Below, in pieces: positions 1 to 11,044 of a DNA stretch of 11,044 bases. Positions within the stretch are counted from its first letter, which is position 1. Every line of letters begins with the position of its first letter. Source of the DNA: an uncultured Eubacteriales bacterium (lineage in GTDB: Bacteria > Bacillota > Clostridia > Christensenellales > CAG-314); contig URET01000038.1 in NCBI GenBank assembly GCA_900546875.1, positions 1 through 11,044 of the forward strand, read 5' to 3'. The notes beneath the pieces were generated by a model. That model had not been told where the DNA came from, did no database searches, and saw only the letters and a program-made list of their open reading frames with translations. The position numbers and the translations under genes were made by a program.

Positions 1-250
1 GCGGCGTCGGGTGTTTTATATTCACAGCGTTGACGTACAATCTGAGGCTTCGGTATTTACGGCGCTGTTTGTATCTGTGGCATTGACATATATTCGCAAA
101 GTTGGTTTATATTAGCGGCGTCGACATATAAATTGCGGCGTCGGGTGTTTTATATTCACAGCGTTGACGTACAATCTGAGGCTTCGGTATTTACGGCGCT
201 GTTTGTATCTGTGGCATTGACATATATTCGCAAAGTTGGTTTATATTAGC
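1..250. repeat. 134-bp direct tandem repeat, about 1.9 copies (copy 1 = 1-134, copy 2 = 135-~250), cut off by the window start. Each unit contains ~45-bp sub-repeats carrying TTGAC(G/A)TA or TCGACATA cores next to TTTATATT.
   Basis: Bases 1-119 (gcggcgtcgggtgttttatattcacagcgttgacgtacaat...attagcggcgt) recur essentially base-for-base at 135-253. Within a unit, 'gttttatattcacagcgttgacgtacaat' and 'ggtttatattagcggcgtcgacatataaat' are about 70% identical. The array probably continues upstream of position 1. Confidence 0.9.
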
Positions 251-435
251 GGCGTTTTTTACGGTTTTTGTGCTGTCCTTGCCGTGTTTTACACTGCAGA
301 GGGCAGAAAAAGGGATTAGACAGACTAAATAAGTATATTGTATAAAATTCATAACACATGTTCAACAAAGACCGTCTGAAACAAAGTAAAATAAAAGAAT
401 ATGGTTTTGCTGTGAATGAAATTTCGCAAAAACAC

Positions 436-3281: not shown

Positions 3282-3403
3282 AAAATAAAACAGTATAAAA
3301 AAAACAGTATAAGAAAAAAAATATTGTGGAGAGTCTATGTTTATATGCTGTGATGTAAATAATACAGTAAGACATATCAAAAAAGGAAAGAAGGAGGAAA
3401 TCG

Positions 3404-4937: not shown

Positions 4938-5260
4938 ATACTCCGGAGAATATGATCGGATTTTTAGAGTTTCAAAGCGGTGCGATGTCGCTTTTTTAAG
5001 TGCAGCGCCCTTATCCGGATTTCAAATCAGGTTTTTTCTGCCAGTATCGGCTTATTATTTAATTAAAGCTCATACCGTAATTCAAGCTGATATCGCTAAA
5101 AAGTATTGAAATATAAAACACGATCGCCCGCGCATCGGAAACCCTGCCTTTTCAGAACGGTTTTTTTCACGGAAACAGGTCAGATGTATTGCATCAAGGC
5201 ATTTGTACTCATCAGGCAAGGCTGCAGGCAGTCGAAGGGAAATATTTTCGTGAAAAAAAT

Positions 5261-5400
5261 CGCCGGTAAAAAACGACGTAAATTCTATCCCGAAGAAATC
5301 TGCGGGTAAAAAACGACGTAAATGCTATCCCGAAGAAATCTGCGGGTAAAAAACGACGTAAATGCTATCCCGAAAATATCCGCCTGTAAAACCTGCGGCT
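5261..5400. repeat. Perfect head-to-tail tandem repeat, 3 x 40 bp (5265-5304, 5305-5344, 5345-5384) plus a degenerate partial fourth copy. Unit: ggtaaaaaacgacgtaaat(g/t)ctatcccgaagaaatctgcg.
   Basis: Copies 1 and 2 differ at one base, and copy 3 diverges only in its last ~10 nt. The period is exactly 40 bp, which is not a multiple of 3. The repeat lies in an ~830-bp ORF-free region between the convergent flotillin and glycosylase-like genes. Confidence 0.9.
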
Positions 5401-5697
5401 TAATTTTTTATCGACCTTTTTTAAGCATAGAAAAAACGGCTGCAGCAGGCGATTTGTTTCGGCTGTACAGTGAGATGTTCCGATAGGCGGTCGTTTCTGA
5501 AATGTATCAGGGCTCCCGGCGGGTTTCGTGATCCGCTTTATATAACGTGTGAAACTTTCCGAAGCTATGAAGAAAAATGTTTTTTGCGATAGTACAGTAA
5601 GGTCCGGATGCGAGATCTGAAAATAAGAAAGAGAGGCCGTATTCTTCTCAGGACTTATTGACCGTTGTCTTTCTCGTATAACGCCACAGAAAGATAC

Positions 5698-6750
5698 TTA
5701 TTCATCAAAACTTATTGATGTAATGTCATTCCACAGCGTGCCTGCAAAATCGGCAACGATGTCTTTTTCTTGTTGCGTTACTGTTTTGAACATCGTAACC
5801 GACAATTTTTTATTCTTCTTTTTCCATTTGCCGACCACTTCGCCATCAATCATCAATGCAGGCATTACAATCCCTGCGAGATTGAATATCGCCCTCAAAT
5901 TCTCTTGGCTTAAAAACAAGCTTTCCTTTTTTTCGTGAGCTAAAAGAAGTTGGTCAAATCCTGCAAGGAACAGACATTTTGGAATCCCTTGATCGTAAGT
6001 CTGATTGTTGTCGATATAAAAATAGGTTTTACCTTCACATTCTGCTGTTGATACAGGCAGTTTGGAAAGCCAATCCTTAACCTGTGCGGCTGTTGCATGA
6101 AAATAGTACATGGCATCGTGAATGGTGGAAGGTCCCATGTGGGTAAAGTATCGACGAGCCATTTCAAGGTTTGCTTCTTGCTCCGGAATGGGAGTAAACG
6201 CAGGAGATAAGCAGAAAGCTTTCTTTTCCTGGACAACATAGTTTATAAATCCACGTTCGCACATTTCACGAACGCCGCCACCCCATTGGTCGAACATACT
6301 GCTTTCTTCGGGTTCGGTCATACCGTTTTGTCTGCAGACATCCTTTAATTCTTCTCTTGTCAGCTCGGAGTATTTAAGAGCATCTAAGATCACATTAGCA
6401 AAATAAGCCTGTCGCTCCGGTGTAAGTGCCCATTTATCACGCTGATTCCAAAACGTATATCCACGCCAATCGTTACGCAAATAATCTTGCCCATTATTGC
6501 AATGAATGAATAATGGCAGATCATCTTCGGCAAACACATGAACTGTTCCTCTGACTGTCCAGTTTTTTACAAGCCCATTTTTGACAGTATCCTTATTATA
6601 ATCTGAACACCTTATTTTCAGCGAGTGCATAGCGTTTACCATGAATTGCGCTTGAACACCACAAAGATCATGGAGGACGGTCATTTTATCTGTCGGTTGG
6701 AGCAAATGTTGATTTGCCATCTGACGAATTTTTATTTCTTCTATGGTCAT
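5698..6750 (-). CDS. Winged-helix HTH_42/DUF1006 protein of the AlkZ/YcaQ DNA-glycosylase family, AlkZ-like subtype with a Q-x-Q motif (350 aa)
   Basis: Length, overall composition and multiple Trp-containing motifs resemble the YcaQ/AlkZ 'winged helix DNA-binding domain-containing protein' family (recalled, not searched). The N-terminal region LHDLCGVQAQF places Q33-A34-Q35 at the position of the catalytic (H/Q)-phi-Q motif of AlkZ-like glycosylases. This is the last gene of the minus-strand operon, 15 nt after the PurN stop. Confidence 0.55.
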   Translation of the reverse strand: MTIEEIKIRQMANQHLLQPTDKMTVLHDLCGVQAQFMVNAMHSLKIRCSDYNKDTVKNGLVKNWTVRGTVHVFAEDDLPLFIHCNNGQDYLRNDWRGYTFWNQRDKWALTPERQAYFANVILDALKYSELTREELKDVCRQNGMTEPEESSMFDQWGGGVREMCERGFINYVVQEKKAFCLSPAFTPIPEQEANLEMARRYFTHMGPSTIHDAMYYFHATAAQVKDWLSKLPVSTAECEGKTYFYIDNNQTYDQGIPKCLFLAGFDQLLLAHEKKESLFLSQENLRAIFNLAGIVMPALMIDGEVVGKWKKKNKKLSVTMFKTVTQQEKDIVADFAGTLWNDITSISFDE

Positions 6751-6765
6751 CGTGTACCTACTCGT

Positions 6766-7360
6766 TCACCCTAAAACAATCTTTCCGTTGATAATGTCTG
6801 CAATCACTTCGACCAAAAAGGTATGCTCCCTTTCAAGAACTCTTGCAGCCAATATCTCCGGTGTATCGTTCTCCAATACCGGCACTGTAGTCTGAGCAAC
6901 GATCTCGCCGCTATCGTATTCGGCATTTACACGGTGAATCGTTACTCCGGTTTCTTTTTCTTTTGCTTCAATTACGGCAGTATGTACGTTCATCCCATAC
7001 ATTCCTTTGCCGCCGAACTTGGGCAGCAGAGCAGGATGGATGTTAAAGATTCTGTTGTTATACTTTTCCAAAACCGTGATATGTAACATTCTCATGTACC
7101 CAGCCAAGAAAATCATATCAACCTCGTGGGTAGCCAACACATCAAGGATTTCTTTAGCGAGAGCTTCTTCGCTTCCGAATTTTTTTTGCGCTCAAATGAT
7201 ATGCCGAAATATTCTCATTGTTGGCTCTCTGTAAAGCCATAGAATCAGCGTTATTGCTTATAACAGCCACAACCGTAGCATTGATCTTATTGCTTTTACA
7301 TCCGTCGATAATTGCTTGTAAATCACTACCTCCATGAGAGACAAAAACAGCTATATTCAT
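6766..7360 (-). pseudogene. purN: Phosphoribosylglycinamide formyltransferase (PurN-type, formyl_trans_N), interrupted by a +1 frameshift in a T8/A8 homopolymer (7180-7187). The track splits it into ORFs 7154-7366 and 6766-7140. Either a pseudogene or a sequencing indel.
   Basis: The N-terminal fragment MNIAVFVSHGGSDLQAIIDGCKSNKINATVVAVISNNADSMALQRANNENISAYHLSAKK matches the PurN N-terminus, and the downstream fragment ...LAGYMRMLHITVLEKYNNRIFNIHPALLPKFGG...VHTAVIEAKEKETGVTIHRVNAEYDSGEIVAQTTVPVLENDTPEILAARVLEREH carries the NxHP-LLP and Asp catalytic motifs. On the coding strand, removing one A from 'gcaAAAAAAAAttcgg' fuses the two into ...AYHLSAKKFGSEEALAKEILDVLATHEVDMIFLAGYMRML. The likely start is the second ATG (7358-7360), 8 nt after GGAGG. 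Confidence 0.8.
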
Positions 7361-7379
7361 ATTCATATCCTCCGTTGCT

Positions 7380-8069
7380 TTATAGTTCGGTCAAAACACC
7401 ACCGTTGAATCCGTATATGTTTTCTTTTTTGAATCCGTATAAAGACCAAGGCAAACTGATATGCGGTTCAAAAGTAAACGCTTCGACAGCGGACAGTTTT
7501 TCCGTGTTTCCTTTTTCGATGTAGATACGGTGTCTTTTATTCTTAACTATGGAATGACCCAAGTTTCCAAGAAAATCAAGGTTGACATACCCACGAGCTT
7601 TGATCTGATCGTTTATGTAGTAGAACAGCTCCTCAAAAGTTGTGTTCTCATTCACGAAACCAAGCATAGCTTCGTGCAGATAGGCTTCCATTTTGAGACC
7701 GTTTCGCCATTCATCATTCTGTATTTGCTCTATGTCTTTGACGATTTTTCCGTTTTCTACGATCAGCGTTCTGGCGTAGTCGCCCCAAATGCAGTTGTTT
7801 TGCGGGCTTAAATCTATTGTGATAATATCGTTTGACTCAATTATGTGGTCATCTGTTTTATACTCACGACCGGATACCGATACAGCGGTCTTTTCACCGG
7901 CGAAAACAAAAGCACCCACATCCCAATACCAAAAGGAAACCGCACCATGGGAAAGCATATATTCCTCACACAGTTGGCGAAGCTCAACAAGCGTCATGCC
8001 GGGCACAATAACTGTTGAAGCATATTCAATGGTGGCTCGGTTCAAATTTTGCATTTCGTGAATAGTCAT
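7380..8069 (-). CDS. M24-family (pita-bread fold, methionine-aminopeptidase-like) metallopeptidase, ~229 aa
   Basis: Alignable by eye to the MetAP core: PGMTLVELRQLCEEYMLSHGA corresponds to PGVSTGELDRICNDYIV. The two metal Asp are 11 residues apart in DIITIDLSPQNNCIWGDYARTL, followed by GHSIV (His), FTFEPHI (Glu) and a C-terminal Glu. The start is taken as ATG 8067-8069, preceded by RBS GGAG. Its ATG overlaps the TGA of the upstream Cys-rich frame (TGATG). Confidence 0.6.
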   Translation of the reverse strand: MTIHEMQNLNRATIEYASTVIVPGMTLVELRQLCEEYMLSHGAVSFWYWDVGAFVFAGEKTAVSVSGREYKTDDHIIESNDIITIDLSPQNNCIWGDYARTLIVENGKIVKDIEQIQNDEWRNGLKMEAYLHEAMLGFVNENTTFEELFYYINDQIKARGYVNLDFLGNLGHSIVKNKRHRIYIEKGNTEKLSAVEAFTFEPHISLPWSLYGFKKENIYGFNGGVLTEL

Positions 8070-8404
8070 CACTTATTCTCCAGTTGGTTGCACTTGTTTA
8101 CATACTTTGCTTGGTAATCCGAAATTTCTTTGCAAGGGTATTCCGAGCATTTAGCGCAAGCATCTGCACTTCGCTCAATGCAACACTTTTTGAATGGACA
8201 CTCTTTGCACAATTCAAATACGTTTTTTGATCTGCCACCGTCGCAGCAGGATTTTTCAAGAGGAATGTCAAGACCAAAGCTCTCTTTATAAAAACTCTGA
8301 GTCTGTCTGCGCAGGTCATCATTATTGGTTTGCGTTGCAATATAGGTAACACACTTTGAACAATCATGACCACAGTAACACGGCTTCCTGCCCGGTGATA
8401 GGGT
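8069..8404 (-). CDS. Cys-rich small protein frame (DUF3795-like: CYCGHDCSKC ... CKECPFKKCC ... CAKCSEYPC) with no canonical start codon; a possible pseudogene or mis-sequenced gene. It is in a different frame from the track's ORF 8098-8373.
   Basis: The stop-to-stop open frame (111 codons) translates to TLSPGRKPCYCGHDCSKCVTYIATQTNNDDLRRQTQSFYKESFGLDIPLEKSCCDGGRSKNVFELCKECPFKKCCIERSADACAKCSEYPCKEISDYQAKYVNKCNQLENK*. Its TGA (8069-8071) overlaps the ATG of the M24 gene, the composition is protein-like and the Cys spacing is conserved-looking, but there is no ATG/GTG anywhere in the frame (one in-frame TTG, without an RBS). A TAA lies 8 codons before the first Cys. Confidence 0.35.
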   Translation of the reverse strand, partial: TLSPGRKPCYCGHDCSKCVTYIATQTNNDDLRRQTQSFYKESFGLDIPLEKSCCDGGRSKNVFELCKECPFKKCCIERSADACAKCSEYPCKEISDYQAKYVNKCNQLENK

Positions 8405-8663
8405 TTATTTTGTTTTCCGGAAGATAATCAAACTCTGTAGATCATTTCTCAGCTTTCGATACTTAATCCGGTATATATCTCGTATATATCTCGCCGTTTT
8501 CACTTTCAATTGCACATACCATATGATGTGCATGTATAAAAGGAGAAACATCCTGAGGAGCATACTGTTCTTTTGCTTTGTAACAGAGTTTTTCCCGAAT
8601 ATCCGTATAACTTTCGTTTTCGGTTTTTATAGTTTTTGTCCATGACCGGCAGACGGAAAGCGT

Positions 8664-9263
8664 TCATACCTTCTGACTGTCGGAATTGCGGTTTATCCAG
8701 CCGAGTTCGACACGTACTTCCTTATTTTCTATATCATGGTTTGAGTAACAGTAAGCGTCAAAGCCCGCAAGACGGAATCCCTGACTCAAATAGAAATCTA
8801 TGGCGTTTACATTGCAGGATTGCGTTTCGAGTATGATCATACGGAAGCCGTGCTTTACGGCGTACTCTTTAGCTTTGTCCATAAGAGCTTTTCCGCGTCC
8901 GCGTTTACGGTACTTTTCCGAACACCACAGTTCCGTTACTCTGAGCCTGTCTGACCATTTTTCGGGATAAATTTCTATTGCGCCCGTAAGAGAGCCTTCG
9001 TCGAAGATCCCGTAAGCCGAAGCGCCCGGCCAATGGGGGGCGAAAAGTCTGTCAGGGTAATCGTAAGCTTCCGGCGAGTGCTTTACGGGAACGGAAAAAG
9101 CTTTTCTTTCAAATACAGCCGTAAATCCGGAAGTATCCGCTTTTATTTTTACGTCGTAATATTCGGAGGAGGTATATTCCACGGGAAGAATGAATCCCTT
9201 CCATTCCGACTTTTTGAGCCTCACGATCGACGGCTTCTTATTTTTTGCTTCGGGTGTGCACAT
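8664..9263 (-). CDS. GNAT-family N-acetyltransferase, streptothricin-acetyltransferase (SatA/STAT)-like, 199 aa
   Basis: Acetyl-CoA binding motif RKRGRGKALMDKAKEYA. The C-terminal block MIILETQSCNVNAIDFYLSQGFRLAGFDAYCYSN closely resembles the LETQ..N..A..FY...GF.L.G.D..Y signature of streptothricin acetyltransferases (recalled). Strong RBS AAGGAG lies 8 nt before ATG 9263. Confidence 0.7.
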   Translation of the reverse strand: MCTPEAKNKKPSIVRLKKSEWKGFILPVEYTSSEYYDVKIKADTSGFTAVFERKAFSVPVKHSPEAYDYPDRLFAPHWPGASAYGIFDEGSLTGAIEIYPEKWSDRLRVTELWCSEKYRKRGRGKALMDKAKEYAVKHGFRMIILETQSCNVNAIDFYLSQGFRLAGFDAYCYSNHDIENKEVRVELGWINRNSDSQKV

Positions 9264-10549: not shown

Positions 10550-10744
10550 CTTCCGGAAGGGCGCCCTCACGCTTTCCTGCAGGGTTTTCGGCTTTTTTTC
10601 AGGATACTAAAAGACTTAAAACTTACTTACGGAAAACCACCGGAAAATCTGCCCGCTTTCATTGGGGAACCGAAAGCGTCTGCAGACGTTTCTTGAGCGG
10701 AAACAGTGCCGTCAGGAAGAGGAAACTGTTTTCCGTGCTTCAAA

Positions 10745-11044
10745 CACGTGCCTTGTCTTCCCGGGGCCGCAAACGTGTCTCGCTTTTCCGGGCTTCGTAA
10801 GCGTGCCTTGTCTTCCCGGCTTCGTAAGCGTGTCTCGCTTTTCCGGGCTTCGTAGCGTGCCTTGTCTTCCCGGGCTCCGCAAGCGTGTCTCGTTTTCCCG
10901 GGCTTCGCAAACGTGCCTCGCTTTTCCGGGCTTCGTAAACGTGTTTCGCTTTTTCGGGCTCCGTAAACGTGTCTCGCTTTCCCGAATTACGTAGGCAGGT
11001 CTCGTTTTCCCGGGCTTCGCAAACGTGTTTCGCTTTTCCGGGCT
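10745..11044. repeat. Tandem array of at least 11 units of a 27-28-bp repeat (consensus ~cgtgtctcgcttttccgggcttcgtaag, alternating with a variant cgtgccttgtcttcccggcttcgtaag), running off the right edge of the window
   Basis: The 'cgtg' landmark recurs at 10747, 10774, 10802, 10829, 10856, 10884, 10912, 10940, 10968, (10996 variant) and 11024, giving a period of 27-28 bp. Most units contain the hairpin AAGCG-tgtct-CGCTT followed by TT(T)TCC. There are no unique spacers, so this is not CRISPR. Confidence 0.9.

Follow-up and report, generated by a model that had tools for sequence, protein, structure and literature searches.

Insertions and deletions within homopolymers have been described in several kinds of bacterial system. 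Poly(A) frameshifts are rescued by transcriptional slippage in genes of Buchnera and Blochmannia, at the A8–A9 sites of IS elements, in Thermus dnaX and in Shigella mxiE; in such cases the frameshift has been retained among strains or species, in tracts that usually count nine residues or more. In the phase-variable loci of Neisseria, Haemophilus, Campylobacter and Bacteroides, tract-length polymorphism between strains toggles the reading frame. In the homopolymer-slippage pseudogenes of bacteria, a one-base insertion in an A or T run is derived and polymorphic, and relatives carry independent disruptions. The enzyme family concerned here is PurN, represented by the NCBIfam equivalog TIGR00639 and by the E. 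coli enzyme, whose catalytic residues are N106, H108 and D144.

We analyzed a stretch of 11,044 nucleotides from an uncultured Eubacteriales bacterium (contig URET01000038.1; hereafter the window), in which a purN gene is interrupted at a run of eight A residues (A8). The locus shares the features just listed for slippage pseudogenes and differs from them in that the A8 allele is unusually frequent (~39% of contigs) and young-looking, with no secondary lesions in purN. With the slippage-rescued genes it has in common a frameshift within an A run of borderline slippery length and a remaining ORF that is intact; here, however, the frameshift is a minority allele, it is absent from sister lineages, and a single inserted base brings no rescue. 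As in phase-variable loci, tract length differs between strains and changes the frame, but the tract is tied to its flanking haplotype, occurs in only two common lengths and is short. Compared with PurN itself, the frame-corrected protein is full length, scores above the equivalog cutoff and keeps Asn106, His108 and Asp144, whereas the window gene is interrupted and flanked by an M24 peptidase and an AlkZ-like glycosylase rather than by pur genes. We consider it probable that A8 is a common, heritable A7 to A8 slippage insertion representing a loss-of-function allele of essentially single origin that has been spread by recombination to ~40%. The mechanism is well known and no new principle is needed; the phenomenon is an ordinary one, cleanly documented here.

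Table. Coordinates of features in the window.
Feature	Position	Strand	Details
N-terminal fragment ORF, 70 aa	7154..7366	-	PurN residues 1-62 plus 8 out-of-frame residues (IRKRRSSR); premature TAA at 7156-7154
A8 homopolymer (T8 on the plus strand), one-base insertion site	7180..7187	-	A7 in conspecific intact alleles: GCA AAA AAA TTC
Second frame	6766..7191	-	PurN residues 63-199, including catalytic Asn/His (NIHP) and Asp; stop TGA at 6768-6766
AlkZ-like DNA glycosylase gene, downstream	5698..6750	-	begins 15 nt past the purN stop
M24-family metallopeptidase gene, upstream	7380..8072	-	13 nt from purN; carries both A8-linked SNPs
SNP in M24	7587		TAC to TAT, synonymous; derived relative to outgroups
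SNP in M24	7448		GGG to TGG, Gly209Trp; derived relative to outgroups
Direct repeat upstream of pepF	1-255		perfect, 134 nt, 1.9 copies, 100% identity
Repeat between AlkZ-like and flotillin genes	5254-5391		40-nt unit, ~3.5 copies
Divergent-haplotype region	8073-8663		two haplotypes
ORF within the divergent-haplotype region	8098-8373		91 aa
Tandem array, running past the window end	10729-11044		27-28-nt unit

The preliminary description had read the N-terminal fragment and the ORF listed at 6766-7140 as the two parts of a single PurN-family formyltransferase interrupted at the A8 run, and this anatomy stands. The minus-strand coding sequence runs ...CAT TTG AGC GCA AAA AAA ATT CGG AAG... through the tract. 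The listed ORF of the second frame begins with GTG at 7140, and the frame itself opens only at 7191; from the tract onward the two frames share 35 nt, and frame restoration is possible only within 7191-7157. As that description also proposed, removal of one A restores a continuous PurN, a protein of 199 aa (197 aa counted from the second Met) that contains the predicted peptide AYHLSAKKFGSEEALAKEILDVLATHEVDMIFLAGYMRML exactly. The frame-corrected protein matches PF00551 (Formyl_trans_N) with 178.5 bits over profile positions 1-181 of 181 and TIGR00639 with 189.7 bits over positions 1-188 of 192, above the equivalog cutoff of 150.1 bits. It aligns end to end with the E. coli PurN structures (1c2t/1c3e; E = 1e-39) and is ungapped at the site of the insertion. 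In this alignment its NIHPaLLP and eyDsGe segments fall on NIHPSLLP and ELDGGP, respectively, with the catalytic Asn-His-Asp conserved. The tract is the sole run of at least eight A or T residues inside a family-assigned ORF of the window; the other two 8-mers, at 3297-3304 and 3314-3321, fall between ORFs.

Both tract lengths are common in this species. The truncated product was found exactly in 135 index blocks as the 68-aa form (from the second Met; human gut, many independent studies) and in 17 contigs from independent human-gut studies as the 70-aa form, which gives ~150 independent A8 contigs or blocks in total. From these 17 identical A8 contigs the frameshift appeared to be fixed in the species, an interpretation overturned by the exact repaired protein, which is even commoner. 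It includes the species-specific Val9 and is present in 195 blocks as the 197-aa form and in 46 as the 199-aa form, so that A7 is represented by ~240 occurrences at the same locus in the same species, or ~60% of strains. The repaired-protein loci that were read all carry A7 (20/20) and are 98-99.9% identical to the window; they share the gene order CitMHS, GNAT, M24, purN, AlkZ-like, flotillin, PepF and GDH. A single continuous PurN ORF is present in these 20 A7 loci and absent from the window and the 16 other A8 loci read. In three studies (ONAT22, ZEEV15 and VALL22), A7 and A8 are both present within the study. Examples of A8 samples are SAMN06165155, SAMEA6814357 and SAMN32384051; A7 is represented by SAMEA6814507, SAMEA14101861 and the MAG GCA_902473025.1, and the locus is also present on a 421-kb NCBI contig.

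The A8 loci are uniform. All 17 (the window and the 16 others) are identical over the 601-nt purN, with zero segregating sites and with no further stops or indels. Such an undamaged, invariant gene would fit a young pseudogene and would fit equally a gene still in use. We found one purN substitution that is private to the species: residue 9 has changed from Ala to Val (GCC to GTC), in A7 as well as A8 alleles. With a single private substitution, itself shared with A7, and zero variation in 17 copies, dN/dS is without power to address constraint on the A8 branch, and the A8 allele is too young for relaxed constraint to be measured.

The origin of A8 was approached through linkage, by comparing variable sites in 37 loci (17 A8 and 20 A7), 36 of which were projected onto window coordinates. 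Two SNPs in the upstream M24 gene, 261 and 400 bp from the tract, track its length closely. T,T occurs at positions 7587 and 7448 in 16/17 A8 loci, and C,G in 19/20 A7 loci at each SNP and in 18/20 at both. Concordance between tract and SNP thus amounts to 35/37 at each SNP and 34/37 at both (Fisher p = 2e-8). The association no longer holds at 6661 in one direction and at 7848 in the other, and the flanks (AlkZ-like, the region of the 91-aa ORF, and CitMHS) are shuffled among A7 and A8 strains. Three of the 37 haplotypes are discordant: L099 combines A8 with an A7-type background; L124 and L118 are mixed haplotypes. All three may be recombinants or products of rare recurrent slippage; recombination explains them equally well, because linkage decays within ~0.5 kb per side.

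Comparison with orthologous loci, which the preliminary description had suggested, finds A7 at conspecific intact loci and A7 or A6 in sister lineages. The tract is A7 or A6 in the outgroup alleles L094, L092, L081-085 and L106, and those checked at the M24 SNPs (L094, L081 and L085) carry C,G; therefore, T,T,A8 is the derived haplotype. Position 209 of M24 is Gly in close relatives and Asn in one more distant relative. We note that Gly209Trp lies five residues past the FTFEPH motif of M24.

The A8 allele is therefore real, derived, linked to its neighboring SNPs and frequent. The tract-SNP linkage further indicates that the insertion arose essentially once and was then spread by recombination, and that switching is slower than recombination over ~300 bp. 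The preliminary description had offered three interpretations of the split. Its genuine inactivating mutation is supported by an A8 that is recurrent, derived relative to outgroups and inherited on a haplotype. Sequencing error is refuted, and conditional expression from a slippage-prone tract is not supported: the tract follows the local haplotype, and neither the sister lineages nor 60% of strains have the frameshift. The lack of a stimulatory RNA structure and the dependence of rescue on rarer slippage products, both detailed below, also tell against conditional expression.

We therefore favor the following sequence of events. A stand-alone purN-family gene would have gone from A7 to A8 by strand slippage in an A run of lysine codons. 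A ribosome translating this allele would make 62 correct residues and 8 wrong ones and then stop, and the catalytic C-terminal part would not be made within a full enzyme. A8 would have arisen essentially once, on a haplotype with M24 Gly209Trp, and homologous recombination would have moved it onto many strain backgrounds. It would now segregate at ~40% in a globally sampled, uncultured species of human-gut Clostridia in which ~60% keep the intact A7. From this we infer that PurN function is lost with A8 and that strains can dispense with the gene. A8 strains may nonetheless make a little full-length protein, by analogy with runs of 8-9 A, which slip in some bacteria and are used in this way by some IS elements (PMC1088944).

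Drift, hitch-hiking or selection for loss could each account for a null allele at ~40% whose core haplotype is invariant. An unlikely, more adaptive version would make the A7/A8 site a slow, selectable on/off switch. Here the null allele together with M24 Gly209Trp would have reached ~40% by a gene-specific sweep, loss of the M24-PurN module would be advantageous in some hosts, and the discordant L099, L124 and L118 haplotypes would be recurrent switches rather than recombinants. If true, an uncultured gut commensal would offer a natural case of gene inactivation that is adaptive and potentially reversible.

A faster form of switching, in which the tract is a phase-variable contingency site and reversible A7/A8 replication slippage toggles purN and perhaps the AlkZ-like gene by polarity, is improbable. 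The coexistence of two common lengths in one species, with A6 as a rare third, would fit such a site, and the 3/37 linkage-breaking haplotypes could be read as recurrent slippage. However, near-perfect SNP linkage across global strains implies switching far slower than in classical phase variation, and the tract is short for a poly-A contingency locus. The spectrum of lengths is also narrow: A6 products were seen in 5 contigs, in Logan only, and A5, A9, A10 and A11 products were looked for in the indexed sequences and none was found. The AlkZ-like gene, for its part, is intact in 37/37 strains and unlinked to the tract, and its polymorphism comprises 24 synonymous and 12 nonsynonymous changes. 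Promoter and terminator scans over 5400-8800 gave matches at or below shuffle expectation.

More doubtful still is recoding, in which the A8 allele would yield full-length PurN by transcriptional slippage or by +1 ribosomal frameshifting on AAA AAA A. The shared 35-nt stretch from the tract onward and the intact remainder of the gene would accommodate such a rescue, but the frameshift is not conserved: the enzyme is read from a single frame in ~60% of conspecifics and in every sister lineage. Restoration of the frame also calls for the loss of one A or the gain of two (A7 or A10 mRNA), which are less common slippage products. Genome-wide data indicate that homopolymer slippage produces mainly single-base insertions and that deletions are rarely in homopolymers (PMC5574713), and here the A9 frame that results from a single insertion reaches a stop after 23 codons. 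Nor does the sequence around the tract favor ribosomal frameshifting: a fold test found no significant stimulatory RNA structure (z = 0.14), and the 0-frame codon after the run is ATT, not a stop, and one expected not to be rare in a window of ~44% GC. We also considered -1 ribosomal frameshifting on A_AAA_AAA and rejected it, since the -1 frame is the A9 frame and the C-terminal half is encoded in +1. Metaproteome peptides spanning the PurN stretch SAKKFGSEEALAK in A8-only samples would speak for rescue.

Finally, it is extremely unlikely that A8 is a homopolymer sequencing or assembly error over a true A7 genome with an intact gene. Homopolymer miscalls do occur, as in a Logan contig of this species (L095) that combines A7 with two other single-base homopolymer deletions, and the rare A6 products come from Logan contigs only. 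However, the ~150 A8 contigs and blocks stem from different studies and assemblers, A7 and A8 were recovered within the same studies, and errors do not track neighboring SNPs as this tract does. L095 was also considered as an A7 revertant on an A8 background, a candidate that was set aside because each of its three indels removes one base from a homopolymer, as is typical of error-prone reads.

The genomic setting of purN bears on whether loss of the gene would matter. None of the pur operon genes lies within +/-10 kb of purN, whose neighbors are CitMHS, GNAT, M24, AlkZ-like, flotillin, PepF and GDH. The closest relatives of this PurN, at 94-98% amino-acid identity, occur in other genomic contexts: beside agr, WYL and S24/M78 genes (L081), beside AraC/AAA_15 genes (L106), among GNAT-rich arrays (L003) and, in Clostridium punense, beside methyltransferase and APH genes. 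A purN homologue beside an AIR-synthase-like gene was found only in a Faecalimonas MAG. For the host PepF, in contrast, relatives beyond its own 90%-identity cluster do not exceed 78%, and the named ones, at ~60-62%, are from Ca. Fimimonas and CAG:1435-type Clostridia. The presence of PurN relatives at 94-98% elsewhere, set against at most 78% for PepF, suggests that M24 and purN form an accessory module acquired horizontally. This module varies very little in either allele class: pi is at most 0.005 there, whereas the immediate flanks reach 1-3%, a pattern that would be consistent with recent arrival. Among the matches listed in a scan of genome contigs, the best are 85-86% identical, and this species is not among them.

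Two observations on PurN relatives stand apart from this argument. Upstream of the purN homologue in the Faecalimonas MAG, a gene (L004, 4732-5982) encodes 416 aa with HTH_3 and AIR-synthase N and C domains; it represents either an unusual fusion or an ORF that has been called too long. Three further close PurN homologues (P0101, P0119 and P0120; 82-83% identity) are 297-aa fusions with PF14131 (DUF4298).

Additional lesions in the module support the dispensability of the gene. A 2-nt deletion arose independently in a related purN allele and was seen in two samples, and in the A7 strain L115 a 1-nt deletion at 7859 splits M24; the resulting 75-aa fragment occurs on 4 contigs.

For annotation, the split purN should be treated as a genuine frameshifted allele (pseudogene) rather than as an error to correct, and intact and broken purN should be handled as strain-level variation. 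About 40% of the strains of a widespread, uncultured gut Clostridia species would be without this formyltransferase. If the enzyme is the sole GAR transformylase, purine autonomy would differ between A7 and A8 strains; if, as the genomic context suggests, the gene is an accessory copy gained by horizontal transfer, its loss would be the routine decay of a redundant gene.

Other variable regions were observed in and around the window. Outside it, upstream of CitMHS in two A8 strains (L088, 764-1473; L101, 5368-6077), a short-chain dehydrogenase of 236 aa in most strains is called as 69 + 111 aa, a split that may be another strain-specific disruption. Adjoining M24, the region in which two deeply divergent haplotypes segregate reaches a pi of ~3%, compared with 0.05-0.5% in adjacent genes, with >40 SNPs in complete mutual linkage; a family search with the 91-aa ORF inside it gave no match. 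The window also contains three repeats. The first is the perfect direct repeat upstream of pepF (Table). The 40-nt repeat varies in copy number between strains, judged from the AlkZ-like/flotillin spacing. The tandem array at the end of the window (also at L086, 1436-2565) has the consensus CGTGTCTCGCTTTTCCGGGCTTCGTAAG and a period that is not a multiple of 3, and the ORFs called over it are inconsistent in length (161-373 aa) and have no Pfam assignment. The array is strain-variable in length: the window includes at least 10 copies, and in related contigs it exceeds 1 kb.
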